From an uncultured Acidobacteriota bacterium (GTDB lineage Bacteria > Acidobacteriota > Blastocatellia > RBC074): a DNA stretch of 64,000 nt. The notes beneath the pieces are model-generated. The model worked only from the letters and a program-made list of their open reading frames with translations, ran no database searches and had not been told where the DNA came from. Of the stretch, positions 3,891 to 19,899 are shown piece after piece (the stretch's first letter is position 1; the number at the start of each line of letters is the position of its first letter). The stretch spans positions 224,001 through 288,000 of the forward strand of contig CAWCKY010000001.1 of assembly GCA_963796275.1 (NCBI GenBank), in the 5' to 3' direction. The position numbers were made by a program, and so were the translations under genes.

Positions 3891-5835
3891 CTATTTCGCC
3901 AGCTCCGCCAACTCCCCCCATCGTTCCACGTCGCGTTCTAGCGCTTGATCGAGCGACTGCAATTCTTCGTACAGCCGGGCGACCAGAACATGATCGCTGC
4001 CATTGGCGGCAAGTTCGGCTTCGGCTTCAGCCTTGCGTCCTTCCGCCGCTGCTATTCTTCTCTCCAATTCCTCCAGTTCACGGGCTTCTTTGAATGAAAG
4101 TTTGCGGTTAGCCGATGGTGCAGGGGCATGGGTAGGAGCAACAACCGCTCCCTGTTTCTGCGCGCGATTCTTCTCTTCCGTACGTTCGCGTTCGCGGATT
4201 TCCAGAAAGAAACTGTAATTGCCTGGGTATTCCCGAATATGGAACTTCCCGCCCTCAGATTTTTCGAACCTTAAGATGTAATCGATGGTGCGGTCGAGAA
4301 AATAACGGTCGTGGCTTACGATTACCAGGCAGCCGGGGAAAGTCTCCAGATACTCCTCCAGCGCGACCAACGTGGGGATGTCCAGGTCATTGGTGATCTC
4401 GTCCAACAGAATCATGTTCGGTGCGCTCATCAACATCCGCAGCAGGTAGAGCCTGCGCCGTTCTCCGCCCGACAGCGTCGCAATCGGCTGATATTGCATA
4501 GTGGGAGGAAATAGAAATCGGTCGAGCATCTGGCTGGCTGTGATGGCGTCACCTTCGCTGGTGACGATATTTTCGGCGACTTCTCTGATGTAATCGATCA
4601 AACGTTGCGATTCATCGAATTCGCGGTTCTCTTGATCGTAATAACCGATGACCACCGTCTCGCCCCTGTCGATCTCGCCGGTATCCGGTTGCAAGCGCCC
4701 TGCGATGATCTCCATCAGCGTCGTTTTTCCCGATCCGTTCGCGCCGATGATGCCGATGCGGTCGCCTCGTTTGAACTGATAGCTGAAATCTTCGATGACG
4801 GATTTTTCTCCGTACATCTTGCTGATGTCTTTCAGACCCAGAATCTTTTGGCCGAGACGGCTCGTGCCGAATGCTTCGAACCCGACATCGAGCGATTTTT
4901 TCCCGGCGAGTTCGCCGGCGACTTCGCGCGATTGCCGGATCAATTCGTTGGCGCGATCGATGCGGGCTTTGGATTTCGAAGTGCGGGCTTTCGGTCCGCG
5001 CCGCAGCCATTCCAATTCGCGCCTGGCCATCTGCTTCAACTTCTGTGCTTTTACGGCCTGGCGTTCTTCTTCGACCTGCTTCAGTTCCAGATATTGGCCG
5101 TAGTTCCCGGTGAACGATTGCACGCGGCCACGATCGATTTCAATGATGCGGTCGGTTACGCGGTCGAGGAAGTAGCGGTCATGCGTGACCAGAAGCACCG
5201 CACCGTTGAATTCGGCCAGCCAGCCTTCCAGCCATTCGACCGTTTCGGCATCCAGATGATTGGTCGGCTCATCCAGAATCAGCAGATCAGGTTTGATGAA
5301 AAGGCTGTGCGCCAGCGCGACCCGTTTGCGCATGTCCGCCCGACAGCGAGCTCATCCTGGCATTCAGGTGCGTGATCCCGAGTTCGTTCAGGATCGCCTT
5401 GAGTTCATTTTCGATTTGCCAGGCGCCGGAAATTTCCATTTGGCCGGCGAGATCGGATAGCCGATTGAGAAGCTTTTCGTCACCACCGCCTCTCTCTGCC
5501 AATTGCTCGCAGGCGGTTTCATACTGCCGCACCAGTTCCAGCTTCTGATGCAGCGCGTCGTTGCTTCCGGCGAAGACGGCTTCGATGACCGTCTGGTTTT
5601 CATCGAAGGACGGGTTTTGTGAAAGGGTGGCGACTACTTTGCCGTTGGCGATGACGACCCGGCCCGTGTCCGGACGCTCCTCGCCAGCAATCACTCTGAG
5701 TAGAGTTGATTTACCGGAACCATTTGCCCCGATCACGCCGACTTTGCCACGGTCATCCAGGCCGAACGATACGGAAGAGAAGAGCGGTTTGATGCCAAAG
5801 GTTTTACTGACGTTTTCGAGCGAGAGGATATTCAT
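3891..5835 (-). CDS. ABC-F family ATP-binding protein (Uup-like), frameshift near 5334
   Basis: Two NBDs (GANGSGKS and GANGSGKT), LSGG signatures, LILDEPTNHLD, C-terminal coiled coil. One extra base in LSGG|MRKRVALA joins ORFs 5287..5835 and 3891..5333. Confidence 0.88.
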
Positions 5836-5839
5836 TCTA

Positions 5840-7048
5840 TTAGTTACTCAGTCGGTAGAGATGAGCCCGGCTGCGTATAAAGATCGAAGCGCCCGATACC
5901 GCCATCGATGCCAGCGTCTGCTCATCGAGCTGGTTCCTGGCGAGCACCTTGAATTGCTTGCCGGGCGCGATCACGACCGATTCCCCTTCTTCGCTGAGAA
6001 AGTATATCCGCCCGTCGGCGTAGGTCGGGGACGCCGAGTGATTGCCGCCTAGGCGCGCTCGCCAGTGCTCGGTTCCGGTCTTCGCATCGACACACGTTGC
6101 GATGCCGTTGTCGCTGACCAGATACAATTCCTCGCCGATCAGAAGCGGTGACGGCGTCAACGATACGCCGCGTTTGAGCGACCATGCGACGTGAGTCTTC
6201 GTTACATCACCCCGGCCGTCCAATCTAACCGCCAACAGCGAGGGTTCGTAGAATCCTGTGCAGATGAATACCATTCCGTGCCCGTAGATAGGCCGCGGGA
6301 CATTTGAAAATCCTTCGCCGTAGCTCACCTGCCAGAGCTCTTTGCCAGTCCGCGGTTCGTACGCGATGGCTTTCATTGCCCCCGGGCTGATCACCTGATC
6401 GCCGCCGGGAAGCCGGACGATGAGCGGGGTAGTGTAGGCTTGATAGCCCTGGCGCGGCCGCTTCCAGCGTATCTTACCTGTCTGCTTGTCGAGCGCAGCG
6501 ACATACTGGATATCCTGGCCGTCACAACTCACTATCAGAAGGTCGCGATAGATGACCGGCGATCCGCCGGGCCCGTGCTGTCCGTTATCGTATGCGAGAC
6601 GGGTCTTCCATACTATCTCGCCGGACAGGGTTATACAGGCGGTGCCATTGGCGCCGAAATGCAAATAGATCCGGTCGCCTTCTATGATAGGCGTGGGAGA
6701 TGCCTGGCTGTTTTTGGAGTTGATCGAACCAGCGCTTTTCATGCGAAATATCTCGATGTTCTGCAGGATCGCACCGGTATTGCGATCAACCGAGACCGCG
6801 CGCAGTGACTTCCCTTCTTCGGTCGCTGTCGTCAGCCAGATGCGGTCACCCTGTATAGCCGGTGAAGACCATCCTCTGCCGGGTATGGCAACTTTCCACT
6901 TCACATTCTTGTCCTCGCTCCAGGTCAAAGGGAGACCGCGTTCGTCGGAATGGCCCTGGCCGGTGGGGCCACGGAATTCGGGCCAGTCTTGGGTCAGTGC
7001 GGTTGCGGCTAGACAGAGTGTCAGGCAAACATTTAAATACGAGTACAA
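5840..7048 (-). CDS. PQQ-binding-like beta-propeller repeat protein (secreted)
   Basis: Signal peptide, DWPEFRGP motif, repeated SP...G..W propeller blades. Confidence 0.85.
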   Translation of the reverse strand: MYSYLNVCLTLCLAATALTQDWPEFRGPTGQGHSDERGLPLTWSEDKNVKWKVAIPGRGWSSPAIQGDRIWLTTATEEGKSLRAVSVDRNTGAILQNIEIFRMKSAGSINSKNSQASPTPIIEGDRIYLHFGANGTACITLSGEIVWKTRLAYDNGQHGPGGSPVIYRDLLIVSCDGQDIQYVAALDKQTGKIRWKRPRQGYQAYTTPLIVRLPGGDQVISPGAMKAIAYEPRTGKELWQVSYGEGFSNVPRPIYGHGMVFICTGFYEPSLLAVRLDGRGDVTKTHVAWSLKRGVSLTPSPLLIGEELYLVSDNGIATCVDAKTGTEHWRARLGGNHSASPTYADGRIYFLSEEGESVVIAPGKQFKVLARNQLDEQTLASMAVSGASIFIRSRAHLYRLSN

Positions 7049-7267
7049 GATTATATGCTCCGATTTGACGGAAATATCCCAGGGGATGTTTCAGAAGCTG
7101 ATAAGGTCGAAATGAAGCGCATCGGGGACACTAGATAATAACCTGGGGCGGAGCGAAGCGTAGTCTCCGACTGATCTCCATAAACCCGGCAGGCTGCTTT
7201 CACGGCCGATTCGGGGATTCAAGGAGATTATAAAGACACTATTTTAGCGTCTTTACCTCAAAATCCA

Positions 7268-8497
7268 TTAAACGACCTGGAAAACTTCGCGCAATCTCCT
7301 GGCGACGATCTCAACTTCACCCGGCTGCATCTGCCAAACGCCGACCGACATTTGTTGCTTTTCGGCCGCGGCGGGAGATGAACCCGGCGCTATCTCGATC
7401 GATGGCTTCCCTTCGCGCAACTGTTTGCGAACGTCATCGACGGTGATATTTAGCGTAGCTTTATCCCAGCTGAATCCGACGGTCGGGACATGGTTCGCTA
7501 TCGGGGGAACGAAGATTTCGGCGCTTGATGGGTTTGATCGCGGCCACGCTCTCGGTGATCGACTTTGGCGCGGCGCTCCCATTCCTTCCATTCTTTCGCG
7601 GCATCGCGTTTCAAATACATCTCCACGGCAACCATCATCCCTACCATCTCTTCTTTATTGACTTTCATGCCGCGCCCGATTGAATCGCTGTTCGGCGAGC
7701 AATTCAAGCGCGCCGCTTCGATCAGCTCTTTTCGCCCGAGCAGCAGTCCCGCGCTTTGCGGTCCTCGGATTCCCTTACCGCCCGAGAAGGTCACGAGGTC
7801 AAAACCCATCTTCGTATATTTCGATAGGTTCTCAGTCGGAGGCACATCGGCGGCCGCATCGTTGAAGGTCGGGATGCCGTGCTTTTTTCCGAGGGCGATG
7901 AATTCGTCGATCTTGATCTTACCCTTCGGATCGGCGTCGTTGAAGAAGAGCATCATCGCGGTCCGTTCGTTGACGGCTTTTTCCAGCTCCTCCGCCGTCT
8001 CGACCTCGATCATTTTGATCCCGCAGTTGCGTACCGCGTGATCGTAACCGTAACGATGCGTTTTCTGAATGATCACTTCGCTCTTCATCCCGGTCAGGTC
8101 CGGTATGCGTTTGATAAATTCCGGATTTTTGCCGGTGAGGACACGCGGCTGTTCCGACGGTCAGAGCGGCCGCGGCACCCGAGGTCACCATCACTGCCTC
8201 GCAGCCGATGAGTTCGGCGATCCGTTTGCCGGCGGCGTCGTGCAGGTCGTTGAGTGGGACAAATTGTTTTGACGCGTAATTCATCGCCTCGACCACTTCC
8301 GGCCACATGAGCGATGCGGTCAGCGTCGTGAATGTGCCGGCCCCGTTGATGAACGGCCGCACGCCGAGCTCTTTGAAGTAATCGCGGCTCGCGCGTGATG
8401 ATATCGCCGCGACCGTAGAGGTGTTGAACATTCCACCGAGCACGGGAATGCTCGACATTATATGGATGAAGTTACGACGGTTCAGCATCGTGTTCAC
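7268..8497 (-). CDS. SelA-like/DgaE-family PLP-dependent enzyme with Tat motif; three +1 frameshifts (about 8140, 7560, 7523)
   Basis: LGVRPFINGAGTFT, VTSGAAAAL, DAAA and the PLP lysine motif FSGGKGIRGPQSAG; N-terminal NRRNFI. Spread over ORFs 7919..8497, 7498..8088 and 7268..7591. Confidence 0.8.
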
Positions 8498-8569
8498 CTG
8501 CCTTTCGTGCCTTTGATGTAATACTGACGGTTATTTTGGTGAATTCTCCTAAATAACTCAAACATTCCT

Positions 8570-11500
8570 TCAAAAGATCAACTTCAATCCTAACTGCATC
8601 TGCCGCATCGGCGCTACAAGGTTGGAGATTGATCCCGGGCCCCGTGTAATACCGGCCTGCGTCGGAAACGCCCCGCCTGCGGTACTCGGCAGAAATTCAG
8701 GCGCCGAGCTAAGCGCTGCATTCGGCACGGCAAACTGTGGCGTATTGAACAAATTGAAGACCTCCCAGCGGAATTGTAGCCGCATCTTTTCCGTAAACCT
8801 GATATTCTTAAATAACGAGAAATCAAGGCTCTTGTATCCCGGGCCTTCCAAAACGCTCTGGCCTGAACTCCCGTAATGACAGAACTGAGACAAATATTTA
8901 TTGCGCGCATCTCCCGCCGCGGTCATCTTGTCGCCTGGCTGTAAGCATGTCACCACGCGGAAAGCGTCGGGATCGAACCATTTGTCGATAGTCGGCTCGT
9001 CCAGTTTGCCGCTGCTCAACCGGTCAGGGCGCGCAGGCGCCTCGCCTGTGTTGATGGTGTTATTCTGCGATACCGTGAAGGGCAATCCCGAGCGTAGCGT
9101 GACGATGCCGTTAGTCTGCCATCCGCCGAAGATATGTTTCAACCCGTTATATTTGAAAGCAGAGATAACCGGCAATTCGTAGAGGAAGCTGATCACGGCG
9201 CTGTGCCTGAAATCAAAACCGTAACGAGCCTTTTCGGCTGCGCGGTTACGCGGGTTCTGATAAGTATTCTGCGTAGCACCGCCTGACTCATTGCGCCCGT
9301 ACCCCTCCCCCATCGCTTTGCTGTAGGTGTAAGCGAAATTCATTTGGAAACCATGGCTTAGACGTTTCTGCGCGTTTACCTGCATGGCGTGGTACCACGA
9401 ATTGGCGTTCGAATCGAGCAGTCGCAGACGCAACAGCTGGCGGCGCGGTCCATCGGGCCCGTCGATAAAGAACGGAATCGGGCGCCTCGTGTTCGGTAGT
9501 GCCAAATCGGGATCGGGCGAATTGAGTTCCACTGTGTTGTCGATATGGGTGCCTTTATTACCGACATAGCCGACAGACAGCACCGCATCGAACGGCAGAC
9601 GCCGCTGTATGTCGAGGCTCCACTGACTGATATACGGCTGATTATTCTTTTCATCGAGCATGTTCAGGCCGGTTGCGCGTGTATTGTCAATGGTTCCGAA
9701 CGGAGCGGAGTATGTTAAAACTGGATCCACCGGGGGATTATTGATTACGCCGCCTGTACCGAGGTTGTCGAATGTGGCCGTTCCCGATTTCGGCGGATTC
9801 AGGTTGAGGATCGAGAAGTTGTTCAACTGATGGACGTTGTAGTAAATGCCGAAGCCCGCTCGCATCACCCAATTCTCGGTCCAGCGATAAGCCAGCCCGA
9901 TTCTCGGCATAAAGATATTTTTCGGCGCATCGTAAAATTCAAACGGCGTGTCGATCGCCGGAATCAGCGTCGGTAGACCATCGGTCAACGTCGTGAAACT
10001 GAGACTGCGCCATAATCCATCGATGTCAGTTGCTGATGAGTTGTACTCCCAACGCAAGCCCAGATTCAGCGTCAGCTTGCGCGTCGCCTTCCAATCGGTA
10101 AGCCCGTAGAGCGCAATTCGGTTCTGCCGCACGTCGGTGAGCGGCAATCCTTCAGGGGTTGACGTGCTGCTCGGATAACCGAGCAAAAATGCCGCGAATC
10201 CAGTGCCCGCGATGTTACCGCTGAAATTCAAACCTCCTCGCGGTACGTTTGCTGCGCCGCGGTAAAGCGCTACGCGGCGAAAATCGAATCCGAATTTTAT
10301 ATTGTGCGCTCCGCGGCTCCACGTCAGATTGTCGCTCACTTGATGCAGGTTGTTGAAGTCGAAACCATTGCCGCCGTCCTGCTCGGCGAGCACGGAGAAA
10401 CCGTTGATCGTGATCGTGGGCAATCCCGTCTCGCGCGGCGTGAATTTGCGATTGCCGTCATTGACCACGCGGAAGCCGTTCAGCCCCAGCGCTTCGGGAT
10501 CGAAGTCGGTGTTTGCCCGCGGATTGAGCGTGTCGTTTACCGATCGGTTGTACCCGTACCGCAGTTCATTGATCAGATTCGGATTGAAGATGTGAATCCA
10601 GGCCAGCGCCACGTTATGATTGCGCCCCTCTACGAAATAAGAAAAGTTGGGGTTATCACCGGGAAGCACGTTATAAGTAACGTCATTGAAAGCATACCTG
10701 ACGAAAATTTTATCCCCCTCCAAAAAATTGTGGTCGACGCGGGTGAAGAACTGATGATCATCGATTGTGCGCCGTTCGAAGCCTGTGAAATTGATGCCGG
10801 TTAGCGGATCAGGATTGTCTCGCTGCGGTTCGGGCCAGTACTTCATCAATTCTTTCGCGACCGGAGAGATTCTGTCGTCTGGGATGATGTTTCCTTCGAA
10901 TGGGTCACCGGTAAGAGGATCCACGATCTCTATCTTCTCCGCCGGCCGGCCTTGTGCATCGACCCGATTCAGCAGCGAACTGAAATCGCCCCGTCTAAAC
11001 GCGAGCGAAGGATGATTGGCTGTTTGCGCAAGATTCCCCTGGCGGCGCGTGCGCGCTTCGTAATTGGCCATAAAGAAAGTTTTGTTCGCGCCGTCGTAGA
11101 TTTTCGGAATACGAACCGGCCCGGTCAGCACACCGCCGAAATTATTCTGTCTGAGCGAATCCTTGGTAGAGCGCGGCGCGCCGGGGGCGTTGAAGTAGTT
11201 CTGGAAGAAATTCTCGGCGTCGAAGATGTCATTGCGAAGGAATTCGAATGCCGAGCCGTGCAAGTCGTTGCCTCCGGATTTCGTCACGATTACCACCTGC
11301 GCGCCGGAGTTGAAACCGTACTCGGCGGAGTAGCTGCCCGATAGCACGCGGAACTCCTGCACGGCTTCAGGCGAAGGGCTGAATGGGATCGTATTGACGC
11401 GCGCCTCGGTCGCCACGACTCCATCGATCGTGCCGTGCCCATTCGTTTCGCGCTGGCCATTGGCCACGAACGAGAGGCCGATGCCGGGAATCGGAATACC

Positions 11501-12067
11501 GTGCGAGCCCTGGCGTTGTCCGAAGCCCTGACCGTCCGTTCCGCTGCGCGGGCCGTATTGCACACCGGGCTGCAGAATCGCGAGCGCCCCGAGGTTACGG
11601 TTGTTGAGAGGCAGCTCCTCGACGCGTCTCTGCTCGACAGTCTGGCCGAGCGTCGCGTCGTCGGTGCGCAGCGTCGCCGCTTCAGCGGTCACTTCCACCC
11701 GCTCATTTGTCGCGCCGACTTGCAGGGTGAAGTCCATGCGCACCTTCTCGTTGATTGCGAGAACGATGTCGCGGCGGATCTCCTGCTTGAATCCTTGCAC
11801 ATCGACGGTCAGGTCATAGACTCCGACATCGAGCAGGGGGAAGCTGAAATCACCGGTAGATGAGGTGACAACCTCGCGCTTGACGCCCGTCCGCGTATTG
11901 ATGGCGGTCACCTTGGCGCCTGACAGTATCGCGCCCGAAGCATCGGAAACCGTCCCCAGGATCGTGGTAGATGTCGTTTGCGCTGAAATCGAAATGCAGA
12001 GGGTGGATAAAGAAAGCAGGCACCGGCAGAACCACCGCCGACCTTGCCTCGCGACATTGTTGGTCAT
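8570..12067 (-). CDS. TonB-dependent receptor (Oar-like, N-terminal carboxypeptidase-regulatory-like domain)
   Basis: Signal peptide, GTVSDASGA N-domain, plug VQEFRV...YSAEYG, C-terminal RQMQLGLKLIF. ATG 12067 has a GGAGG RBS (the ORF track starts at 12136). Confidence 0.92.
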   Translation of the reverse strand: MTNNVARQGRRWFCRCLLSLSTLCISISAQTTSTTILGTVSDASGAILSGAKVTAINTRTGVKREVVTSSTGDFSFPLLDVGVYDLTVDVQGFKQEIRRDIVLAINEKVRMDFTLQVGATNERVEVTAEAATLRTDDATLGQTVEQRRVEELPLNNRNLGALAILQPGVQYGPRSGTDGQGFGQRQGSHGIPIPGIGLSFVANGQRETNGHGTIDGVVATEARVNTIPFSPSPEAVQEFRVLSGSYSAEYGFNSGAQVVIVTKSGGNDLHGSAFEFLRNDIFDAENFFQNYFNAPGAPRSTKDSLRQNNFGGVLTGPVRIPKIYDGANKTFFMANYEARTRRQGNLAQTANHPSLAFRRGDFSSLLNRVDAQGRPAEKIEIVDPLTGDPFEGNIIPDDRISPVAKELMKYWPEPQRDNPDPLTGINFTGFERRTIDDHQFFTRVDHNFLEGDKIFVRYAFNDVTYNVLPGDNPNFSYFVEGRNHNVALAWIHIFNPNLINELRYGYNRSVNDTLNPRANTDFDPEALGLNGFRVVNDGNRKFTPRETGLPTITINGFSVLAEQDGGNGFDFNNLHQVSDNLTWSRGAHNIKFGFDFRRVALYRGAANVPRGGLNFSGNIAGTGFAAFLLGYPSSTSTPEGLPLTDVRQNRIALYGLTDWKATRKLTLNLGLRWEYNSSATDIDGLWRSLSFTTLTDGLPTLIPAIDTPFEFYDAPKNIFMPRIGLAYRWTENWVMRAGFGIYYNVHQLNNFSILNLNPPKSGTATFDNLGTGGVINNPPVDPVLTYSAPFGTIDNTRATGLNMLDEKNNQPYISQWSLDIQRRLPFDAVLSVGYVGNKGTHIDNTVELNSPDPDLALPNTRRPIPFFIDGPDGPRRQLLRLRLLDSNANSWYHAMQVNAQKRLSHGFQMNFAYTYSKAMGEGYGRNESGGATQNTYQNPRNRAAEKARYGFDFRHSAVISFLYELPVISAFKYNGLKHIFGGWQTNGIVTLRSGLPFTVSQNNTINTGEAPARPDRLSSGKLDEPTIDKWFDPDAFRVVTCLQPGDKMTAAGDARNKYLSQFCHYGSSGQSVLEGPGYKSLDFSLFKNIRFTEKMRLQFRWEVFNLFNTPQFAVPNAALSSAPEFLPSTAGGAFPTQAGITRGPGSISNLVAPMRQMQLGLKLIF

Positions 12068-12232
12068 AAGCAAGCCTCCGATTAGATCGACATTTTTAAA
12101 AGTGTGATGCTGGTGCCAATTAGGTGAAAACACCATACTATCCGCTCACCAAAGCGTCAAGTTGACATATACGAATCGAGCGTCATTCCGTATAATCACG
12201 GCGATACGATCAATCCCAATAAAACAAGGACG

Positions 12233-12706
12233 GTGCCAATGGATTCGCAAAGAAGACGAATAATGAAAGCAGCGGCTGTCACCGCTATCGCCGCTCCGGC
12301 GGCCAAGGCCGCGGGCAGCCAATCGAGCAACTCCCAATCCCCGAAGAAAAAAGTGCATTATCGGGGCGGAAAAAAACCTGAGAAAACGCCGCTCTTTTCC
12401 GGGGCAGTCTCTTACGGCAATCTGCTTTTCATCTCCGGTAAAGGCGCTCACTTCAAGGGCGATATCAAGGAGCACACGAAACACGTGCTCGATGAGATCG
12501 AGAAGGAGTTGGTCAATGCCGGGTCTTCGATGGACAAGGTTCTCAAATGCAATGTCTATCTTAACGATCTGAAAGATTACCAGGCGATGAACGAAGTGTT
12601 CCGCGGGCGATTCGGCGAAGAGCCTCCGGTTCGTACCACGATCGCAGCGGCCGGCGGCATCCCAGGCGATTCGCTCGTCGAGATCGACGTAATCGCTTAT
12701 ATATGA
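12233..12706 (+). CDS. RidA/YjgF family imine deaminase with N-terminal twin-arginine-like leader
   Basis: FSGAV, LFISG, KCNVYL, MNEVF, PPVRTTI (catalytic Arg), VEIDVIA; leader SQRRRIMKAAAVTAIAAPAAKAA. Confidence 0.9.
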   Translation: MPMDSQRRRIMKAAAVTAIAAPAAKAAGSQSSNSQSPKKKVHYRGGKKPEKTPLFSGAVSYGNLLFISGKGAHFKGDIKEHTKHVLDEIEKELVNAGSSMDKVLKCNVYLNDLKDYQAMNEVFRGRFGEEPPVRTTIAAAGGIPGDSLVEIDVIAYI

Positions 12707-12710
12707 AAAA

Positions 12711-12793
12711 GGAAGCAAAAATAGCGAAAGTTGCAAAAAGGCAAAAAGCCAGGACTTTTTGCCTCTTTTGCCTTATTTGACCCATTGCTTTCC
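12711..12793. repeat. Imperfect palindrome with A-rich and T-rich arms (dispersed intergenic family)
   Basis: GGAAGCAAAA...GCAAAAAGGCAAAAAG faces CTTTTTGCCTCTTTTGC...TTGCTTTCC; a similar element is at 39866-39958. Confidence 0.75.
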
Positions 12794-12818
12794 TTTTCCA
12801 TCCTGAGGTGGAGGAATC

Positions 12819-13967
12819 ATGGAACGCAGAGAATTCGTCAAACTCCTTGCCGCAACCCCGATCGCTTCGCGGATTCACGCTGAGGAGCCCAGAGAGATAC
12901 CGAAATACAAGATCGTCAGCACTTACAAACCAGCCGCTCACCCGGGTATGCCGGGGCCGTATCCGGGTAAAGTCATCAGCATCAAATCAGCCAATTGCCT
13001 AAACGAAACGGGCGAGCAGATCAATGCTGAAGTCGTGCGCGAGATGATGGAGCGCGGCATGCGCGAGTTGACGGGAGAGGCGAAAACGATCGATGCGTGG
13101 CGCCGCTTCATCGGGCCGGATGACGTGGTCGGCATCAAGGTCAACGTCAACGGCTATCCGTGGGTCTTTTCTACGCATCCGGTCGTTGCCGAGGTCGTCC
13201 GTAACCTGATGGATATAGGGGTAAAACCGCCGCAGATCTACGTCTACGACCGTTTTCAGGACCAGTTGGATAGGGTGAATTACGCTCCGCATTTGCCGGA
13301 AGGCGTGAACTACGTTGCCGCCGAAGCCGGGAACCGGCGCCTCGATAACAGCAACTACGATCAGCTGACTTATGTTGAGGCCGACATGTTCGGCGAAGAG
13401 GATACGCGCTCGAATATGATGAAGCTCATCTCGCAGAAGCTAACGAAGATCATCAACATCCCGAATATAAAAGATCACGGCGCTACCGGGGCCACGGGAT
13501 GTCTGAAAAATATCGCTTACGGCGGCTTCTCAAATGTCGCGCGCACACATTCCAACGGCGTCTCACACACGTATTCGTTCGTCGGCACCCTGGCCGCCGT
13601 CGAGCCGATTCGGTCGCGGACGGTCCTCCAAATCATGGATGGTTTGCGCGGCGTGTGGCACGGAGGGCCGTTTGCCCGAACGCTCAAATACGTTTTCTTT
13701 CCCAAGCAGATGATGTTCGGGACCGACCCCGTGTCCATCGACCGTCTGCTGCTCGATATCATCGATAATGAACGGAAGTCGCGCGGCGCGATCTCTATCT
13801 GGGATCGTTCGGAGAAGTTTCTGAATACGGACGATGTTCGGGCTCGCGATAATGATCCGAACGTCAATATCATTATCAGAGAACCGGGTCACGTGGAATA
13901 CGCGGCAAAGCTGGGGCTTGGAATTTCCGATCTCGATAAGATCAGTCTCAAGGAGATCGAAGTATGA
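12819..13967 (+). CDS. DUF362 domain protein, Tat signal
   Basis: MERREFVKLL leader; VGIKVN, INIPNIKDH, GCLKN and GTDPVSID motifs typical of DUF362. Confidence 0.78.
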   Translation: MERREFVKLLAATPIASRIHAEEPREIPKYKIVSTYKPAAHPGMPGPYPGKVISIKSANCLNETGEQINAEVVREMMERGMRELTGEAKTIDAWRRFIGPDDVVGIKVNVNGYPWVFSTHPVVAEVVRNLMDIGVKPPQIYVYDRFQDQLDRVNYAPHLPEGVNYVAAEAGNRRLDNSNYDQLTYVEADMFGEEDTRSNMMKLISQKLTKIINIPNIKDHGATGATGCLKNIAYGGFSNVARTHSNGVSHTYSFVGTLAAVEPIRSRTVLQIMDGLRGVWHGGPFARTLKYVFFPKQMMFGTDPVSIDRLLLDIIDNERKSRGAISIWDRSEKFLNTDDVRARDNDPNVNIIIREPGHVEYAAKLGLGISDLDKISLKEIEV

Positions 13968-15046
13968 GTTTGCCCTTGTTGCCCCTCTTGCTCCGTTTGC
14001 CCCGTTTGCCACGGGTGCCCGTGTTGATATTGATTTACGCATTTGTTCTGAACGTACCGGTTGGGGAATCTTTACTTTATGGACAAGTGAAGGGACCTGA
14101 AGATTCTCCGCATCAATTACCCTATATTTATTGGCCATATGGAATTGATACCGCTCAGGCGTTGAAAGAGGCGGGAATAAAAGAAATTTGCGTTCCGGAC
14201 GATCAGGCAAAGGCATGGCGCGCAGCAGGATTTAAGACGCTGACCAACAGTTACTTGAGATTCGAGCAACGCGAAAAATTGCTGGTCCCCGGCATCGTCA
14301 GACGCGCCAATGTGGCTTCAGCGACAAGCCGCCCCTGGATAGATGCCAATGGGTGGCGATTTATAAGGAACTCGGCCGGCAAGTTTTATTATGAATTGCC
14401 GTCCGGCAAAGGCAGCCTTGCCGCTGCCGAAGCATTCGCCTACAAGGGAGATGCAGTTTTAAAGATCGATCAGGCCGACCTTGAAGAAGTCGGAAAAATG
14501 CTGAAATTCCAGCGCGGCTTACCGGGAAATAATCTACCGGTAGTTGCCGATATCGCGGTAGTTGACGATAGATCTCCGCTGACCGGAGAGGTAATGAATC
14601 TGCTTGCTCGCCGCAACCTGCTGTTTAAAATCGTCGATGCGCCGTCGCCTCAGTATCCCATCAACATCAAAATCGGAACGAAAGAATTTCCCGAATCTGA
14701 CGCAGCCGACCCCAGCGACTTCGCGCAAAAGATTCGCCGCCGGCTCACTGATGAGAGAAGAACTCTGCGAATATATGGCAATGAAGTAGTCATCTGCCGC
14801 GTTACCGGCGATAAATCGCGCCTCAGGCTCCACCTCTTAAATTACAGCGGACGCGAAATCTCCGGCATGCGTGTTCGTTTGCGAGGAACTTACGGCAAGC
14901 CTCAGGTCAGAGCGTTCGGGTACGACCAGATCGAGCCCGAAGATATCGAAGTCGCCGGGGGCGCGACCGAATTCACAGTCCCGAAAATGGGTAACTATGC
15001 GATGGTCGATTTGCCGAGGATCGTTACCGGAAAACAAAATCGGTAA
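13964..15046 (+). CDS. Hypothetical secreted protein, translationally coupled to DUF362 (ATGA overlap)
   Basis: 360-aa ORF, hydrophobic N-terminus, C-terminal LHLLNY strand motif. Confidence 0.7.
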   Translation: MSLPLLPLLLRLPRLPRVPVLILIYAFVLNVPVGESLLYGQVKGPEDSPHQLPYIYWPYGIDTAQALKEAGIKEICVPDDQAKAWRAAGFKTLTNSYLRFEQREKLLVPGIVRRANVASATSRPWIDANGWRFIRNSAGKFYYELPSGKGSLAAAEAFAYKGDAVLKIDQADLEEVGKMLKFQRGLPGNNLPVVADIAVVDDRSPLTGEVMNLLARRNLLFKIVDAPSPQYPINIKIGTKEFPESDAADPSDFAQKIRRRLTDERRTLRIYGNEVVICRVTGDKSRLRLHLLNYSGREISGMRVRLRGTYGKPQVRAFGYDQIEPEDIEVAGGATEFTVPKMGNYAMVDLPRIVTGKQNR

Positions 15047-15223
15047 TGAGGCAACATCTATTTTTTTCTTTTTTGTTAGCTGTTTGCCTGCCGTCTCCGC
15101 TTCCGCTTTTCACCTCATAAGTATTTCTTTTTGCTGATTTTATGGACACAGAGTCTAATTCTGATATAATCCCCGCAATAAATTTCCCCCGTAGATTTCT
15201 GAAGAGGTATTCATTGTATTCCC

Positions 15224-15502
15224 ATGAAAACTGATTGGTTGTTTGGGCTGTATTTCGGACTCGTTGGATCACTTGTAAAGCTTCTGATTTTTGATTCAGT
15301 CACCCCATACAAGCCGACAGCTTACAGCAGTTCGATATTGGTCACGCTTCTGATTGCCTACCCTATATTCATATGGGGGAGCAAGCAGCCGAAGACTCGG
15401 TGGGGCCATGGCGGTAAAGAATGGACCTTCACCGGGTGGACGTTGTTAAGTGTGATGGGGGCTGCCTTATCTTTTCTTGTCGGCATCATCGTCCTCGAAT
15501 AG
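15224..15502 (+). CDS. Small hypothetical membrane protein (about 3 TM)
   Basis: 92-aa ORF with three hydrophobic segments; GAGG upstream; fills the intergenic gap. Confidence 0.5.
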   Translation: MKTDWLFGLYFGLVGSLVKLLIFDSVTPYKPTAYSSSILVTLLIAYPIFIWGSKQPKTRWGHGGKEWTFTGWTLLSVMGAALSFLVGIIVLE

Positions 15503-15517
15503 CCGATGGGCAGGCTA

Positions 15518-16588
15518 TCAGGGATAGACTCGAATCATCTTCCAATCCTGACTTGTATCCGGGAGAAAAAAGATCACTTCGGTGATCAGATATTTCTTTA
15601 TCAATTTTCTAGTCCTATCGATTCCGAGAACAAAGAAGACGTTATCCAAAGCATCGCCTGCTGTGCCTGTATCTGTCAGTACGGCGACGCTTAGCAGGCC
15701 TTGCACTGGCATTCCCGTGCGCGGATCCATAATGTGCGAATATCGCACCCCGTTGACTTCGAAAAATTTTTCATAACTGCCCGAGATCGAGAGCGCCCGG
15801 TTATTCAAGTTGACAGTTAAGGCAAATTTTTTGTTATCGACCGGGTCTTGAATCTTGATCTCCCAGCCCGATGAATCCGGTGGCGAACCGAGCCCATAGA
15901 TCGTGCTGCCGCCTGCGTTGACCAATGCTCTTTCGATGCCGCGCGATTTAAGGAGGCGCACGGCGCGATCGACGGCATACCCTTTGGCAATGCCTCCGAG
16001 GTCGAGTTCGATGCCAGCCATATCGAAGCGGACCGTCTTCTCATTATCATTGAGAATTATATGCTGGTAACCGGTGCTGCGCCGCGCGCTCGATAATTCA
16101 GAGTCCGAAGGCAGCCTGCCCTCATCGCGAAAGAAACCCCAGGCCTTCATCAGTGGGCCGACCGTGATATCAAATGCGCCGTCCGATTCGCGGCTGTACT
16201 TAATGCATTCCGAGATAAAATCGAATAACTCCGGCTCGACCCGGACCGGCCGTTTGGATGCTTCGCGATTGATTTTTGAAAGCTCGCTCTCCTTTTTGTA
16301 ATGGCTCATTAACCGGTCGATCCGGTCGATTTCATCAAGCGCCTCGTTCAATATCTTTTTCAGCTCATGTTCTTCGCGGCCGTATGCGACGATGCTGTAG
16401 GTGCATGCCATTGAGATGCGGCTCTCTTCAAAACGTATCGGTTTATCGTTCTGAGAACTGCTCTGAGTATTGTTTTGAAGGGAGAATATGAAACAGACGA
16501 AAATATAGGGAAAGAACGAAAAGGCGGGTATTTTTCGTTTGAATCGTTTATTTTCGTCCATGCCGTATTCTCTTTTGTCTTTCTCCAT
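15518..16588 (-). CDS. apbE: FAD:protein FMN transferase (ApbE)
   Basis: GAFDITVGPL, LDLGGIAKGYAVD, SGSYEKFF, YSHIMDPRTG. The start may be 16561. Confidence 0.92.
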   Translation of the reverse strand: MEKDKREYGMDENKRFKRKIPAFSFFPYIFVCFIFSLQNNTQSSSQNDKPIRFEESRISMACTYSIVAYGREEHELKKILNEALDEIDRIDRLMSHYKKESELSKINREASKRPVRVEPELFDFISECIKYSRESDGAFDITVGPLMKAWGFFRDEGRLPSDSELSSARRSTGYQHIILNDNEKTVRFDMAGIELDLGGIAKGYAVDRAVRLLKSRGIERALVNAGGSTIYGLGSPPDSSGWEIKIQDPVDNKKFALTVNLNNRALSISGSYEKFFEVNGVRYSHIMDPRTGMPVQGLLSVAVLTDTGTAGDALDNVFFVLGIDRTRKLIKKYLITEVIFFLPDTSQDWKMIRVYP

Positions 16589-16646
16589 ATTGCGATGATG
16601 TCACATTTGAGAGAAGATGCGCACCAGAAAGGCATAAAGCTCAAAT

Positions 16647-16680
16647 CATAAAGGACCCAGAAAAGGACCCATAAAGGACC
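16647..16680. repeat. 11-12 bp tandem repeat CATAAAGGACC x3
   Basis: Lies between divergent apbE and CBM9-like genes; the last unit supplies an AAGGA RBS. Confidence 0.7.
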
Positions 16681-16686
16681 GGCGAT

Positions 16687-17397
16687 ATGACAAAATTATA
16701 TCAATTTCTGTATCTCTTACTCACCGTCGTGATTTTACAAGGTTCGTCAAAAAATGAAGATCCCTCATTGATAAAAAGCTATCGCGTTCAATCAGACTTC
16801 GCACTCACGGCTGACCCTGAGTCAAAGTCTTGGAAGGAGATTAAAGGTGCGATCGCCGAACGCGGGCCGAGAGGTGATTTGACGCCGGGTCATCGCACAG
16901 AAATTCGTTCGCGCTGGTCCGAGAAAAATCTTTATCTGCTGTTCATCTGCCCTTACCAGGAGCTTTTCCTCAAGCCCGGACCGTCGACCACCGCCGAAAC
17001 CAACAAACTCTGGGAATGGGACGTAGCCGAGGTCTTCATCGGGACGGACTATCAGAACATCAAACGTTATACAGAGTTTCAGGTCTCGCCGCAGGGCGAA
17101 TGGGTCGATCTGGATATCGATCGCAACCCCAATCCGGCAGTCCACGATTGGCAATGGAATTCCGGATTTGAAGTAAAAGCCCGCATCGATGGCGAGAAGC
17201 GGATATGGTACGGTGAAATGCGCATCCCTCTTGCGAAGATCGATAAGCGCGCTCCGAAAACCGGCCTGGAGATGCGGATCAATTTTTATCGGTTCCAGGG
17301 ACCGCCGCCCGATCGCAAACGTATAGCGTGGCAACCGACCAAAACCGACAACTATCACGTCCCCGAAGCTTTCGGCCGTTTGATCCTGGAGAAATAG
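16687..17397 (+). CDS. Carbohydrate-binding family 9-like (DOMON-like) secreted protein
   Basis: RSRWSEKNLYLLF, LWEWDVAEVFI, EFQVSPQG, WYGEMRIP, RINFYR, WQPT...YHVPEAFG. Confidence 0.8.
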   Translation: MTKLYQFLYLLLTVVILQGSSKNEDPSLIKSYRVQSDFALTADPESKSWKEIKGAIAERGPRGDLTPGHRTEIRSRWSEKNLYLLFICPYQELFLKPGPSTTAETNKLWEWDVAEVFIGTDYQNIKRYTEFQVSPQGEWVDLDIDRNPNPAVHDWQWNSGFEVKARIDGEKRIWYGEMRIPLAKIDKRAPKTGLEMRINFYRFQGPPPDRKRIAWQPTKTDNYHVPEAFGRLILEK

Positions 17398-17402
17398 AGA
17401 TC

Positions 17403-18341
17403 GTGAAGTTCATACATCAGGCAGCTCCGTTACTATTAGCGATTTCACTGAGCTCGATTATTTACGCTCAATCACCCAAAAATTTACCGGGGTTCCCTTC
17501 GACCGTGGCCGATGGCGCCAAGCCCGTAGTAGTCTATGAAGAAGATGCGTTTTTCGAGGGACCAGCCTGGGACCCGGTGACCGGCAAACTCTACTTCACC
17601 GCATTCAAAAAGGATAACCAGCAGATACTCCGTCTGGATGGCAACAAGAAAGCCGTAGTCTGGATGGACAAGACGCAGGGCGTCAACGGAATGCGCACGT
17701 CGCGCAGTGGTCGTCTGCTGGGCGCGCAGGCATACGGTCACAACTTGTTGAGCATAAAGATAGGCGCCAGTGGGCCGGAAGATATGAAGAGCCTGACCGC
17801 GAACTTCCAGGGGCAGAAATACAATCAACCGAACGATCTGGCAGAAGCGCCTAACGGCGGGATTTACTATACCGACCCCGATTTTAAGGGAAAGGCACGA
17901 AGCGCAGTCTATTATTTGAGTTCCGAAGGAACGGCGAGCCGTATCATCACGCATTTGAAAATCCCCAACGGGATTGTGGTCTCGAATGATGGAAAGACTT
18001 TATACGTAGGCGACAGCTTCGAGAAGCGAATCTATTCCTATGCCATCAAGCCGGACGGTTCGGTCGATGAGGGAGCGGTCAAGATATTCTTCGATCCAGA
18101 GACGGACAATCGCAACGACCCCGATGGAATGTGTTCTGATGCCGAGGGCAATCTCTACTTCGCAATGCGCGGAGGGGTCTGGGTGGCCTCGCCGGAAGGT
18201 AAAACTCTGGGCTTCATTCCGATCCCTGAATTCACGAGCAACGTCGGGTTCGGCGGCAAAGACGGGAAAACGTTGTTTATGACTTGTGGAAAGAAAGTTT
18301 ACGCGCTGGAGATGAAGGTCAGAGGCTCGCAGTTTCGCTAA
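17403..18341 (+). CDS. SMP-30/gluconolactonase family protein (secreted)
   Basis: FFEGPAW, NQPNDL, IYYTDP, PNGIVVSNDG, PDGMCSDAEGNLY; Sec signal from GTG 17403. Confidence 0.9.
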   Translation: MKFIHQAAPLLLAISLSSIIYAQSPKNLPGFPSTVADGAKPVVVYEEDAFFEGPAWDPVTGKLYFTAFKKDNQQILRLDGNKKAVVWMDKTQGVNGMRTSRSGRLLGAQAYGHNLLSIKIGASGPEDMKSLTANFQGQKYNQPNDLAEAPNGGIYYTDPDFKGKARSAVYYLSSEGTASRIITHLKIPNGIVVSNDGKTLYVGDSFEKRIYSYAIKPDGSVDEGAVKIFFDPETDNRNDPDGMCSDAEGNLYFAMRGGVWVASPEGKTLGFIPIPEFTSNVGFGGKDGKTLFMTCGKKVYALEMKVRGSQFR

Positions 18342-18415
18342 TGGAAGGGCGAAAGGCAATAATTTGATTCTCGCTCCAGTTTACTTCTTCCGTTTGCCAC
18401 TTTTCGTCTTTCTGC

Positions 18416-18537
18416 TGCTAACGGATATTTGCTAACGGATATTGTGGATGTGAGTATTGTCCTCTCGCAGGCTAAATTGCATTGAAATAAGGACCATAAT
18501 CCCGAAGGGCAGATGCCACAAAATCCGTTAGCACCAG
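18416..18537. mobile_element. MITE-like element with terminal inverted repeats
   Basis: TGCTAACGGATATTGTGG (18430-18447) versus CCACAAAATCCGTTAGCA (18516-18533), 17/18 complementary; the left end is partly duplicated at 18416. Confidence 0.55.
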
Positions 18538-18560
18538 TCGCCGTTTTGTTTCCTTTACTT

Positions 18561-19784
18561 CTACTTTTCCCACGGCTCGCTGCTTCTTCCGTTGAGATCG
18601 TACATCACATCACCATCGAGGAAAGTCATTTCGCATGACAACTTCTGGCTCCCGTTCATTCGAGTTTTTTCCACATCGACGTAACCGAAGTCGCCGCGAT
18701 CAAGCCGGAACACGGCGATGTCTGCGGTCGCGCCGACGCTCAGGTGGCCGAATTTTTCGCGTTTGATCTCTTTCGCCGGATTCCACGTCGATTTCAGAAT
18801 CACGTCTTCAAGAGGCATCCCCATATTCAGGAATTTCGACATCACATTGACCATATCTCTCATCCCTCCGTTTGCGCTGCGCAGGTGCAGATCGGTCGAG
18901 ATCGAATCCGGAGAGAACCCCTGCTTCATAGCGGGAACGGCATAGCGAAAAATGAAACTGCCCGCCCCGTGTCCGACATCGAAGATCACGCCACGTTTCT
19001 TGCCCTCGAATAGGTAAGAGCGTACTTTCCCACCTTCGTCGAACATCGGAACGCGCGAGAGATAGGTGTGAGTGTAGATGTCGCCGGGGCGAAGCTTCTT
19101 CAGAATCAGGTCCCAATGCGGCCGTTCGGTTCGGAATTCACCAAAATCGACCATCAAAGGGACATTGGCCATCGCAGCTGCCTCAAGAGCGCGATCTACT
19201 GCGGTCCATTCAGGCCTGGCGAAATGTGCCGTCTTGATCCCGACGATGATGTCCTTATGTCTCTCTACCATCTCGGCGGTTTTCTTCGGGTCCATGTCGT
19301 CCGTATCCTGTTCGATGGGCCCGCCACCCATCCCCAGGCCGACGATATTGAGCAGCGCGAGGACGCGAGTGTTTGAGCGATCGATGACCCGTTGCTTGAA
19401 ATCCTCGAAGTTCTGCCACCCTGAGGTTCCTGCGTCGACCATCGTGGTCGTGCAGGCGCGAAAACTGTGCAGATCGGGGTAAACGCTCCAATCTCCCGTA
19501 TAACCCTTAACTCCCGTTCCCGCGTACGCATGCACGTGGATGTCGACCAGCCCGGGCGTCAGATAGAGCCCGTTGAGATCGACAACCCTTGCAGCCGTCG
19601 ACGGATCTATCGTCTGTTGGACGGCGGCTATCAGCCCCTTTGTGATAGCGACATCCCGTTTTTCATTGATGCTGTTCTTAGGATCAATTACGTGGCCGTT
19701 TTTGAGGAGCAGATCGTATCTCGGTTGAACTTCGGCACTTAAAATACCGGCTGCCAGCAATAGAACTGTGAGCAAGAATCTCAT
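18561..19784 (-). CDS. Amidohydrolase/deacetylase family metallohydrolase (dihydroorotase-like), Sec signal
   Basis: PGLVDIHVH, VDAGTSG, VGIK, RPGDIYTH, FDVGHGAGSF, SISTDLH, MSKFL, ADIAVF. Confidence 0.88.
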   Translation of the reverse strand: MRFLLTVLLLAAGILSAEVQPRYDLLLKNGHVIDPKNSINEKRDVAITKGLIAAVQQTIDPSTAARVVDLNGLYLTPGLVDIHVHAYAGTGVKGYTGDWSVYPDLHSFRACTTTMVDAGTSGWQNFEDFKQRVIDRSNTRVLALLNIVGLGMGGGPIEQDTDDMDPKKTAEMVERHKDIIVGIKTAHFARPEWTAVDRALEAAAMANVPLMVDFGEFRTERPHWDLILKKLRPGDIYTHTYLSRVPMFDEGGKVRSYLFEGKKRGVIFDVGHGAGSFIFRYAVPAMKQGFSPDSISTDLHLRSANGGMRDMVNVMSKFLNMGMPLEDVILKSTWNPAKEIKREKFGHLSVGATADIAVFRLDRGDFGYVDVEKTRMNGSQKLSCEMTFLDGDVMYDLNGRSSEPWEK

Positions 19785-19899
19785 GGTCCTCCTCAGCAAA
19801 TAGATGGGTTTCCGGTCGGGGTTTGATGGCGCTACGGCACATCACCGATAAGAAAGACGCAGTTAATGCCCGGAAATTAGCACTCTCGTAGAAAGGGAG

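Follow-up and report, generated by a model that had tools for sequence, protein, structure and literature searches.

A block of ten genes in the genome of an uncultured Acidobacteriota bacterium (Blastocatellia, RBC074; assembly GCA_963796275.1, contig CAWCKY010000001.1) is probably a catabolic locus, linked to a TonB-dependent receptor and conserved in Acidobacteriota, whose enzymes would work outside the cytoplasm. The block occupies positions 5840–19799 of the 64,000-nt stretch analysed here (the window). Open reading frame (ORF) calls and Pfam scans, covering every block ORF of at least 150 aa and the larger ORFs across the remaining window, found ten genes, those named in an earlier sequence-only reading lying where it had placed them. 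The conserved core consists of the receptor, a lyase related to the pyridoxal-5′-phosphate (PLP) enzyme DgaE, a RidA-family protein and an amidohydrolase of the NF006689 family. Starting from protein families, from leaders and their conservation and from gene linkage, we infer that the enzymes are exported, in what order they act and on what: we favour a periplasmic route of deacylation, deamination and imine hydrolysis, and tentatively name an amino-sugar acid as the compound that it consumes.

The receptor, lyase, RidA and amidohydrolase genes are linked across Acidobacteriota and in two Bacteroidota metagenome-assembled genomes (MAGs). In the window, the receptor-type outer-membrane protein (1188 aa; 8570–12136, minus strand) has CarboxypepD_reg, OMP_b-brl_4 and TonB_dep_Rec_b-barrel domains (PF25183, 717.7 bits; PF13620, 71.5 bits; PF00593, 34.7 bits), and the DgaE-family (SelA-related) lyase (7268–8497, minus strand) lies in three frames, with a SelA Pfam match in its middle piece (E = 3.9e-11). 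RidA is encoded at 12233–12706 (plus strand) and the amidohydrolase at 18561–19784 (minus strand). Among loci of up to 20 kb from ten related genera, some of them ending at contig ends, we found RidA in 7/10, the orthologous receptor in 6/10 (71–76% identity, adjoining the lyase gene) and the amidohydrolase in 4/10, together with genes of a second module described below (DUF362 in 7/10, a 360-aa protein in 6/10, ApbE in 4/10, CBM9 in 1/10) and a lactonase in 1/10; the propeller gene of the block was found in 0/10. We also analysed the best 80 loci of more than 544 lyase relatives (ten related genomes included). The 43 of these that span at least 15 kb hold a receptor in 20 cases, RidA in 20, DUF362 in 13, the 360-aa gene in 10, the amidohydrolase in 9, ApbE in 8, CBM9 in 5, the SMP-30/gluconolactonase-like (SGL) lactonase in 2 and the propeller in none.

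Co-occurrence, which the sequence-only reading had put forward as a check, came out in its favour. Sampling the phylum evenly, we examined 201 genomes with a completeness of 85% or more; at E ≤ 1e-40, 26 of them have the lyase family and 24 the NF006689 amidohydrolase. Both are present in 18 genomes, whereas 8 have just the lyase, 6 just the amidohydrolase and 169 neither. In 9 genomes, no more than 1.5 kb separates the two genes; excluding the unpublished genome G076, co-occurrence is 17/25 and adjacency 8. We attach no statistic to these counts, as kin in the sample are not independent. The lyase family is expanded, with up to five paralogues per genome. Of the gene set that had been read as one pathway, the receptor, lyase, RidA and amidohydrolase are linked elsewhere too, the propeller is missing from the related loci (0/10 and 0/80) and the lactonase is an occasional member rather than part of the core.

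Other families carry compact operons of receptor, RraA-like, lyase, RidA, lyase and amidohydrolase genes (loci L107, L109 and L113). Pfam scans of 27 previously unassigned ORFs from 7 of 12 such loci (the high-GC loci L110, L111, L114, L115 and L117 gave noisy ORF calls and were left out) placed the trio of lyase, RidA and amidohydrolase with a receptor, RraA-like aldolases bearing signal peptides, PF10282 lactonases with twin-arginine (Tat) leaders, MFS transporters, a Tat-leader UxuA-like protein, GH88 and a leaderless BBE-type FAD oxidase. By tblastn, RraA-like genes occur in 11/92 loci and a lactonase of either family in 5/92. The Tat-leader UxuA-like protein (mannonate dehydratase family; L108:7739–8860, minus strand) and PF10282 lactonases (L107:15435–16655 and L109:10835–12001, both minus strand), all in receptor loci, hint that Acidobacteriota may more widely metabolise sugar acids beyond the cytoplasm.

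Judged by family and residues, the lyase appears to work like a β-eliminating ammonia-lyase, yet it is not a DgaE. A full-length alignment joins it to Salmonella DgaE (PDB 7lc0; E = 1.8e-34 with a single sequence and 1.3e-45 with a profile). Family scoring used the intact orthologue L014:9679–10911, which reached 162.2 bits against the curated cut-off of 600 for NF047797 and 184.7 bits against 385.3 for TIGR01437. PMC9529869 assigns roles in DgaE to Lys213, Arg226, His162/His163 and Arg301/Arg332/Arg346. The PLP-binding Lys213 and the α-carboxylate-binding Arg226 align to K240 and R254, which are invariant in our orthologue set, and β-elimination on an aminoaldonate-type substrate would be expected. 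The His162/His163 pair, described there as strictly conserved in DGL sequences, is not kept: it stands opposite a gap (single sequence) or Ala-Asp (profile), and the corresponding FFNDADPKG segment has no histidine. Nor is the Arg301/Arg332/Arg346 cluster, which that paper proposes, from modelling, as the 6-phosphate site; its members fall opposite T, E and a gap (single sequence) or T, S and W (profile), in a C-terminal stretch that aligns poorly, so that we place moderate confidence in this difference. Because the phosphate arginines are not kept, a 6-phosphate substrate seems unlikely, which fits both the leader of the enzyme and the Pfam scans of the window, in which no phosphotransferase system (PTS) or kinase was found at the locus despite the presence of an outer-membrane receptor. 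A phosphorylation-independent route, as proposed in the sequence-only reading, is consistent with a DgaE relative of this kind.

Nearly every gene of the block has an export signal, as had been noted previously. Judged from the motif and by eye, twin-arginine N-termini are present on the DgaE/SelA-like enzyme (MLNRRNFIHIMSSIPVLGG), on RidA (MDSQRRRIMKAAAVTAIAAPAAKA; the likely start is the ATG at 12239) and on DUF362 (MERREFVKLLAATPIASRIHA). In all three, a (S/T)-R-R-x-F-L-K-like motif is accompanied by a weakly hydrophobic stretch and an A-x-A-type site. Sec-type leaders, also as described before, are found on the amidohydrolase (MRFLLTVLLLAAGILSA), the SGL lactonase (read from the GTG at 17400; VKFIHQAAPLLLAISLSSIIYA), the CBM9-like protein (MTKLYQFLYLLLTVVILQG) and the PQQ_2 propeller (MYSYLNVCLTLCLAATALT). 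The ApbE protein likewise has a hydrophobic, Sec-type N-terminus, as do full-length amidohydrolases, the lactonase and CBM9; that of the 360-aa protein is hydrophobic but very short in its family, leaving a cleaved signal uncertain. The twin-arginine motif is kept among relatives: RR-x-F directly follows the start in 69/72 DgaE-like N-termini (56 by regular expression and 13 by eye inside over-long ORFs), and the motif is present in 17/18 single-domain RidAs and 17/17 DUF362s. Genome-wide, 125 of 12331 ORFs of at least 150 aa match a strict Tat-like pattern and just six 5-kb bins contain two or more matches, so the clustering of Tat-like leaders at the block exceeds chance. The genome encodes TatC. 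On the basis of these leaders, the block enzymes are presumably exported. The leader claimed for the PLP enzyme is real; the gene that bears it is split into three frames in the window.

The three DgaE-like proteins that lack RR-x-F are second, leaderless paralogues, each in tandem with a Tat-leader copy in some Blastocatellia (L024:8636–9802, L025:8637–9803 and L033:11184–12395). Such tandem copies would place cytoplasmic and exported isoenzymes side by side.

RidA scores 74.6 bits with PF01042, above the gathering score of 27.3, and 70.5 bits with the TIGR00004 subfamily, under its cut-off of 106.25. It has a conserved P-V-R-T-T near the C-terminus, which may hold the counterpart of Arg105 of the enteric protein, the catalytic arginine of imine-hydrolysing RidAs. 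The amidohydrolase (COG3964 type) exceeds the NF006689 cut-off (423.6 versus 371 bits) and carries an HxH metal motif (D-I-H-V-H). Its relatives in the PDB are 8je0 (an amidase; E = 5e-49), 2ogj and 2ics, the latter two being entries misnamed as dihydroorotase or adenine deaminase. In 10/80 loci, the stretch from the receptor to the Tat-leader RidA also encodes a Sec-exported protein of 330–400 aa that consists of two or three RidA domains (for example, L032:8537–9616 and L014:4805–5860, both minus strand); no multi-domain RidA gene was found in the window.

In the route that we propose, the receptor would import an N-acylated β-hydroxy-α-amino acid, for which the best candidate is a 2-acylamino-2-deoxy-aldonic (amino-sugar) acid, or a glycoside or lactone of it. 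After optional trimming and lactone opening by the 360-aa protein, which has a glycosidase-like predicted fold, and by the lactonase, the Sec-exported amidohydrolase would take off the acyl group. The Tat-exported DgaE-like enzyme would then eliminate the β-hydroxyl (α,β-elimination) to give an enamine/imine, which the Tat-exported RidA would hydrolyse to a 2-keto-3-deoxy acid and ammonia. Loci of other lineages may continue from there with an exported RraA-like enzyme for aldol cleavage and an MFS transporter for uptake. A glycan or lactone is the probable starting material from which the second module makes the substrate, and DUF362 and ApbE may epimerise or oxidise a 2-hydroxy-acid or anomeric centre. 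The periplasmic amino-sugar-acid pathway of the sequence-only reading thus survives as a likely sequence of deacylation, deamination and imine hydrolysis; its amino-sugar-acid substrate is plausible, at somewhat less than even odds.

In logic, the nearest known system is the ong cluster of Pseudoalteromonas prydzensis, which serves the use of oxidised chitin (GlcNAc1A); in lyase homology, it is DgaE. As described in PMC9537276 and PMC12017989, ong shares with the locus TonB-dependent receptors, an N-deacetylase of the amidohydrolase superfamily, a PLP deaminase and a RidA-family protein (essential in ong), and deacetylation followed by deamination without prior phosphorylation yields a 2-keto-3-deoxy acid (in ong, 2-keto-3-deoxygluconate, KDG), acetate and ammonia, an order that we propose for the locus as well. 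OngB and OngC are predicted to be cytoplasmic and to be fed by an SSS transporter, whereas the locus enzymes carry export signals; OngB is of the D-aminoacylase type, whereas the amidohydrolase here is, in a comparison by family, of the NF006689/COG3964 type. The DgaE/SelA-related lyase also sets the locus apart from ong, and Pfam scans of the window recovered none of the ong marks GH20 (OngA), SSS transporter, KdgK and MurR/RpiR regulator. DgaE itself shares fold and family with the locus lyase, from which it differs in the histidine pair and the arginine cluster; the latter enzyme has a Tat leader and is paired with RidA and the amidohydrolase, with neither a PTS nor a DgaF-type aldolase. 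The locus would therefore differ from both systems in compartment, enzyme subfamilies and accessory genes.

Imine-producing deamination paired with RidA outside the cytoplasm, as proposed for the locus, has a parallel in the extracytoplasmic L-amino-acid oxidase (LAAO) of Chlamydomonas, which has a RidA-type subunit and presumably releases ammonia from external substrates (PMC5053998). That system and the Tat-LAAO/RidA cluster of Gluconacetobacter, described in passages of the same paper, belong to other organism groups and use a flavin oxidase where the locus has a PLP lyase; the passages do not report the Gluconacetobacter RidA as exported. Our literature search, which did not cover subscription papers, turned up no account of a bacterial RidA that is exported, of a DgaE-like lyase with Tat export or of a function for DUF362, and no paper on a periplasmic glucosaminate pathway. 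The cytoplasm is where the known routes (Salmonella dga and Pseudoalteromonas ong) carry out deacetylation and deamination; the locus suggests a periplasmic equivalent, built from different enzyme families, in abundant soil Acidobacteria, with a pairing of PLP lyase and putatively exported RidA that our search did not find described. Such a route would free ammonia and small keto acids ahead of uptake, and the locus is relevant to the ways in which soil Acidobacteria obtain nitrogen from glycans that are oxidised or acidic.

Several observations weigh against this interpretation. The phosphate arginines of DgaE map into the poorly aligned C-terminal stretch. The lyase gene is frameshifted three times in the window, and its orthologue was not found in two MAGs of the same genus (87% and 73% complete; weak matches with a 163-aa query from the middle piece). 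The amidohydrolase adjoins the lyase in just 9/43 long loci, and lactonases occur in just 5/92 loci. Pfam scans of the window found no inner-membrane transporter, KDG kinase or aldolase, and a search of the genome (94.7% complete) for LPMO_10 gave no match. The strict target motif of ApbE, D-x-x-[ST]-G-A-[ST] (PMC12052999), occurs in no called ORF of 11 ApbE-bearing loci (the window and ten others). Finally, when the neighbours of the 80 loci were clustered without bias and then Pfam-scanned, the commonest extra neighbours were signal-bearing Peptidase_S15 genes after the lyase gene (18/80 loci), which suggests peptide or ester substrates.

The same chemistry might accordingly serve a non-sugar substrate—N-acyl-D-amino acids, β-hydroxy amino acids such as D-serine and D-threonine, or peptide or ester fragments—as a source of nitrogen and carbon, a possibility that we consider doubtful while taking it seriously. 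The Peptidase_S15 neighbours leave room for N-acyl-D-amino-acid or peptide substrates, the presence of up to five lyase paralogues in a genome implies several substrates, and the amidohydrolase has PDB relatives deposited as an amidase or as misnamed dihydroorotase. Work attributed to Ornelas (2013) is said to have found that COG3964 enzymes deacylate acetyl-mandelate or N-acyl-D-amino-acid-type compounds in vitro. An extracytoplasmic precedent also concerns amino acids, namely the Chlamydomonas amino-acid oxidase with its RidA subunit, as cited in PMC5053998. Against a non-sugar substrate, DgaE, to which the lyase is closer than to any other characterised enzyme, has an aminoaldonate as its substrate, and carbohydrate- and sugar-acid-related neighbours recur: two lactonase families, exported RraA-like aldolases, the Tat-leader UxuA-like protein, GH88, SGSH-type sulfatases (8/80 loci encode one with an SGSH_C domain and a Tat leader), CBM9 and the protein with a glycosidase-like predicted fold.

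A second module, consisting of DUF362, the 360-aa protein, ApbE and sometimes CBM9 and the lactonase, is linked to the core. Its genes lie in the window at 12819–13967 (DUF362, plus strand; PF04015, 60.8 bits), 13964–15046 (360-aa protein, plus strand), 15518–16588 (ApbE-family FAD:protein FMN transferase, minus strand; PF02424, 284.9 bits), 16687–17397 (CBM9-like, DOMON-type protein, plus strand; PF06452, E = 2.1e-9) and 17400–18341 (SGL lactonase, plus strand; PF08450, 141.4 bits). The account of the block in the sequence-only reading made no mention of ApbE or the 360-aa protein, both of which are present. Core and module might be two unrelated adjoining systems, with the receptor, lyase, RidA and amidohydrolase forming one route and DUF362, the 360-aa protein and ApbE (with CBM9 and the lactonase) a redox or glycan system with its own substrate. 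We give this limited credence. DUF362, the 360-aa gene and ApbE are all missing from many loci in which the lyase is accompanied by RidA, the amidohydrolase or both (for example, L092, L097, L098, L107, L109 and L113), ApbE occurs solely with DUF362 and the 360-aa gene (10/10 ApbE-bearing loci among the 80), and another ApbE of the genome belongs to a different receptor/oxidoreductase locus. Against two separate systems, Blastocatellia preserve an arrangement in which the DUF362 module is enclosed by the amidohydrolase gene and the lyase/RidA genes (L024, L025, L032, L033 and L045), and even distant DUF362 paralogues (32–36% identity) adjoin lyase and RidA genes in other orders (L056, L076 and L102, of which L076 belongs to the cultured Paludibaculum fermentans).

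DUF362 had been listed as an exported protein of no known function; its Tat leader stands, and a predicted LarA-like fold can be added. Its AlphaFold2 model (pLDDT 78.2) predicts the fold of the N-terminal domain of LarA, the nickel-pincer racemase type. VIA-align matched the model to LarA-family chains 9eia, 4nar, 7s91, 9q3j and 5huq with Z scores of 14.3, 14.1, 13.8, 13.3 and 12.7, respectively, over 212–228 aligned residues (the next best chain had a Z score of 5.2), and Foldseek agreed (E = 2e-5 to 1e-3). The fold match also agrees with the placement of DUF362 and DUF2088 in one Pfam clan (PMC11770544). A weak hhalign match (E = 0.39 over 24 columns) sets the DUF362 segment TKIINIPNIKDHGATGATGCLKNI opposite the LarA segment with His174 and the cofactor tether Lys184, so that H220 and K230 face these two residues. 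By spacing alone, H244 may be the counterpart of the nickel ligand His200; H220, K230 and H244 are invariant in 18/18 aligned sequences. To the extent that this weak alignment and spacing can be trusted, DUF362 may keep a His-x9-Lys...His arrangement resembling the LarA nickel-pincer site. It has no histidine at the position of the second catalytic His108 of LarA and stands outside Lar_N (PF09861): PF04015 is its sole Pfam match, and the structural matches cover LarA residues ~31–270 (up to 333), without the C-terminal domain. The Tat leader and the link to ApbE are further differences from LarA, with which the predicted fold is shared. A DUF362 profile run against PDB sequences gave chance matches alone (E > 0.2). 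An Fe–S cofactor was rejected as unlikely, since the alignment has just one semi-conserved cysteine. With more than 4362 homologues, this large group of putatively exported proteins acquires here a first functional context and a predicted LarA-like fold.

The genome also encodes LarC and two Lar_N genes. The LarC gene (G000:C4:1476161–1477344) matches in two frames (open frames of 99 and 337 aa), reflecting either a further assembly indel or a frameshift of the LarC1/LarC2 type.

The 360-aa protein has no Pfam, NCBIfam or meaningful PDB sequence match, and its more than 1661 homologues are all unnamed. Its structure model (pLDDT 72.9, poor over residues 104–144) combines an α/β barrel with a β-sandwich and predicts a glycosidase-like fold, with Z scores of 15.4 to 9m0b, 14.2 to the GH29 chain 6tvk and 12.1–9.1 to GH66 and GH42 chains. 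The family has invariant Asp and Glu residues, from which no catalytic pair could be assigned. ESM Atlas returned just unnamed Acidobacteriota clusters; named clusters scored 0.79–0.80, which is chance level, and were all glycosidase-like. The locus thereby points to an unnamed protein family with a predicted glycosidase-like fold.

ApbE of the block is one of three ApbE loci in the genome, none of which lies beside Nqr or Rnf genes. Another (L106; G000:C6:1676000–1691000) is a receptor locus with a GntR regulator, a GFO/IDH/MocA oxidoreductase, an FAD oxidoreductase with an F5/8 type C domain, an MFS transporter and an SGSH-type sulfatase. In this genome, ApbE seems to go with loci for sugar oxidation in the envelope and not with Nqr or Rnf. 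The absence of the strict motif from the 11 loci led us to reject DUF362 as a canonical target of flavinylation. The relaxed form [ST]GA[ST] occurs in 5/17 DUF362s and in 1/13 of the 360-aa family, and one may speculate about a non-canonical site, [AS][TS]G[AV]T, in DUF362.

CBM9, found in 6/80 related loci, has no meaningful PDB sequence match; fusions of DUF362 with CBM9 have been reported (PMC5742341). The SGL lactonase, present in 2/80 loci as well as in L019 and the window, has as its best PDB relatives 3e5z (a putative gluconolactonase) and 3dr2 (an exported gluconolactonase). A CBM9-like domain and an SGL lactonase share one 541-aa ORF in a Pyrinomonadaceae MAG (L032:2777–4399, minus strand), which is either a natural fusion or an assembly artefact through a lost stop codon.

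A more ambitious proposal, in which core and second module form one chain as a complete oxidative amino-sugar route outside the cytoplasm, is one that we hold to be decidedly unlikely. Here, the 360-aa glycosidase-like protein would release a sugar, on which the Tat-exported LarA-like DUF362, its nickel-pincer cofactor loaded in the cytoplasm, would perform hydride-transfer chemistry, either oxidising or epimerising it at the anomeric centre or at the carbon adjacent to the carboxyl group, possibly together with an ApbE-installed flavin and the DOMON-type CBM9 protein. The lactonase would open the product, and the amidohydrolase, DgaE-like lyase and RidA would strip acetate and ammonia, leaving a keto-deoxy acid for an exported RraA-like aldolase to cleave, in other lineages, ahead of MFS uptake. 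If true, this would provide the first DUF362 function, the first exported nickel-pincer-type enzyme and the first periplasmic pair of PLP lyase and RidA.

The split of the lyase gene raises the question of whether the locus is alive in this genome. Three 1-base insertions, near 8141, 7562 and 7525, distribute the gene over three frames, whereas the orthologues in 11 related genomes (one of them from the unpublished genome G004) are all open over 401–410 aa and 77–93% identical over the middle part. We aligned contigs of four soil and plant metagenome runs (X1–X4) to window positions 5000–9000. The extra base is absent at 5331, 7525, 7562 and 8141 in every run covering those sites (X2, X3 and X4); site 5331 is the break in an adjoining ABC-F gene and the other three are the lyase breaks. 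X1, the run most similar to the window, has no coverage at 5331, 7525 or 8141, and a loose-ended X1 read at 7561 likewise lacks the extra base. The assembly comprises 9.46 Mb in 7 contigs, which suggests long-read sequencing. Because related populations lack the insertions and a 9.46-Mb genome is held in 7 contigs, we regard the three lyase insertions as quite likely to be assembly errors.

Were the three frameshifts real, the locus would be decaying and the pathway dead in this genome. Three 1-base insertions do fall in a single 1.2-kb gene while the adjoining 3.6-kb receptor gene is intact, and sites 7525 and 8141 are uncovered by any run with 99%-alike contigs. We nevertheless judge decay unlikely: all four frame breaks in the 3.9–8.5-kb region are single extra bases absent from two to three related populations, and from the X1 read in the case of 7561; an adjoining housekeeping gene, ABC-F, shows the same kind of break; the remaining frame stretches are undamaged and 77–93% identical to intact orthologues; and the low contig number again points to long reads. 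The ABC-F-type ATPase gene (3891–5835, minus strand), split into ORFs of 182 and 480 aa by the extra base near 5331 that contigs of three related populations lack, is probably an assembly error rather than a pseudogene.

That the N-terminal motifs are non-working signals and the enzymes cytoplasmic, as DgaE and OngB/OngC are, is very improbable, given that 69/72, 17/18 and 17/17 relatives retain the motif together with the hydrophobic stretch and the Ala-x-Ala-type site, that an outer-membrane receptor without PTS or kinase stands at the locus and that leaderless tandem paralogues sit beside leader-bearing ones (L024, L025 and L033), the leader therefore being a kept and separable feature.

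The tenth gene of the block encodes a PQQ_2/BamB-like propeller (5840–7048, minus strand), which we rejected as a pathway member because of its absence from the related loci; it adjoins the lyase just in near-identical populations. In the related population X3, the 150-base spacer between propeller and lyase (7110–7261) is replaced by 122 different bases. The flanks of the block are unrelated, containing the split ABC-F ATPase, AlkA, YdjM and housekeeping genes. Elsewhere in the window, two plus-strand ORFs of 337 and 489 aa (584–1597 and 26924–28393) have no Pfam match at E ≤ 1e-5.

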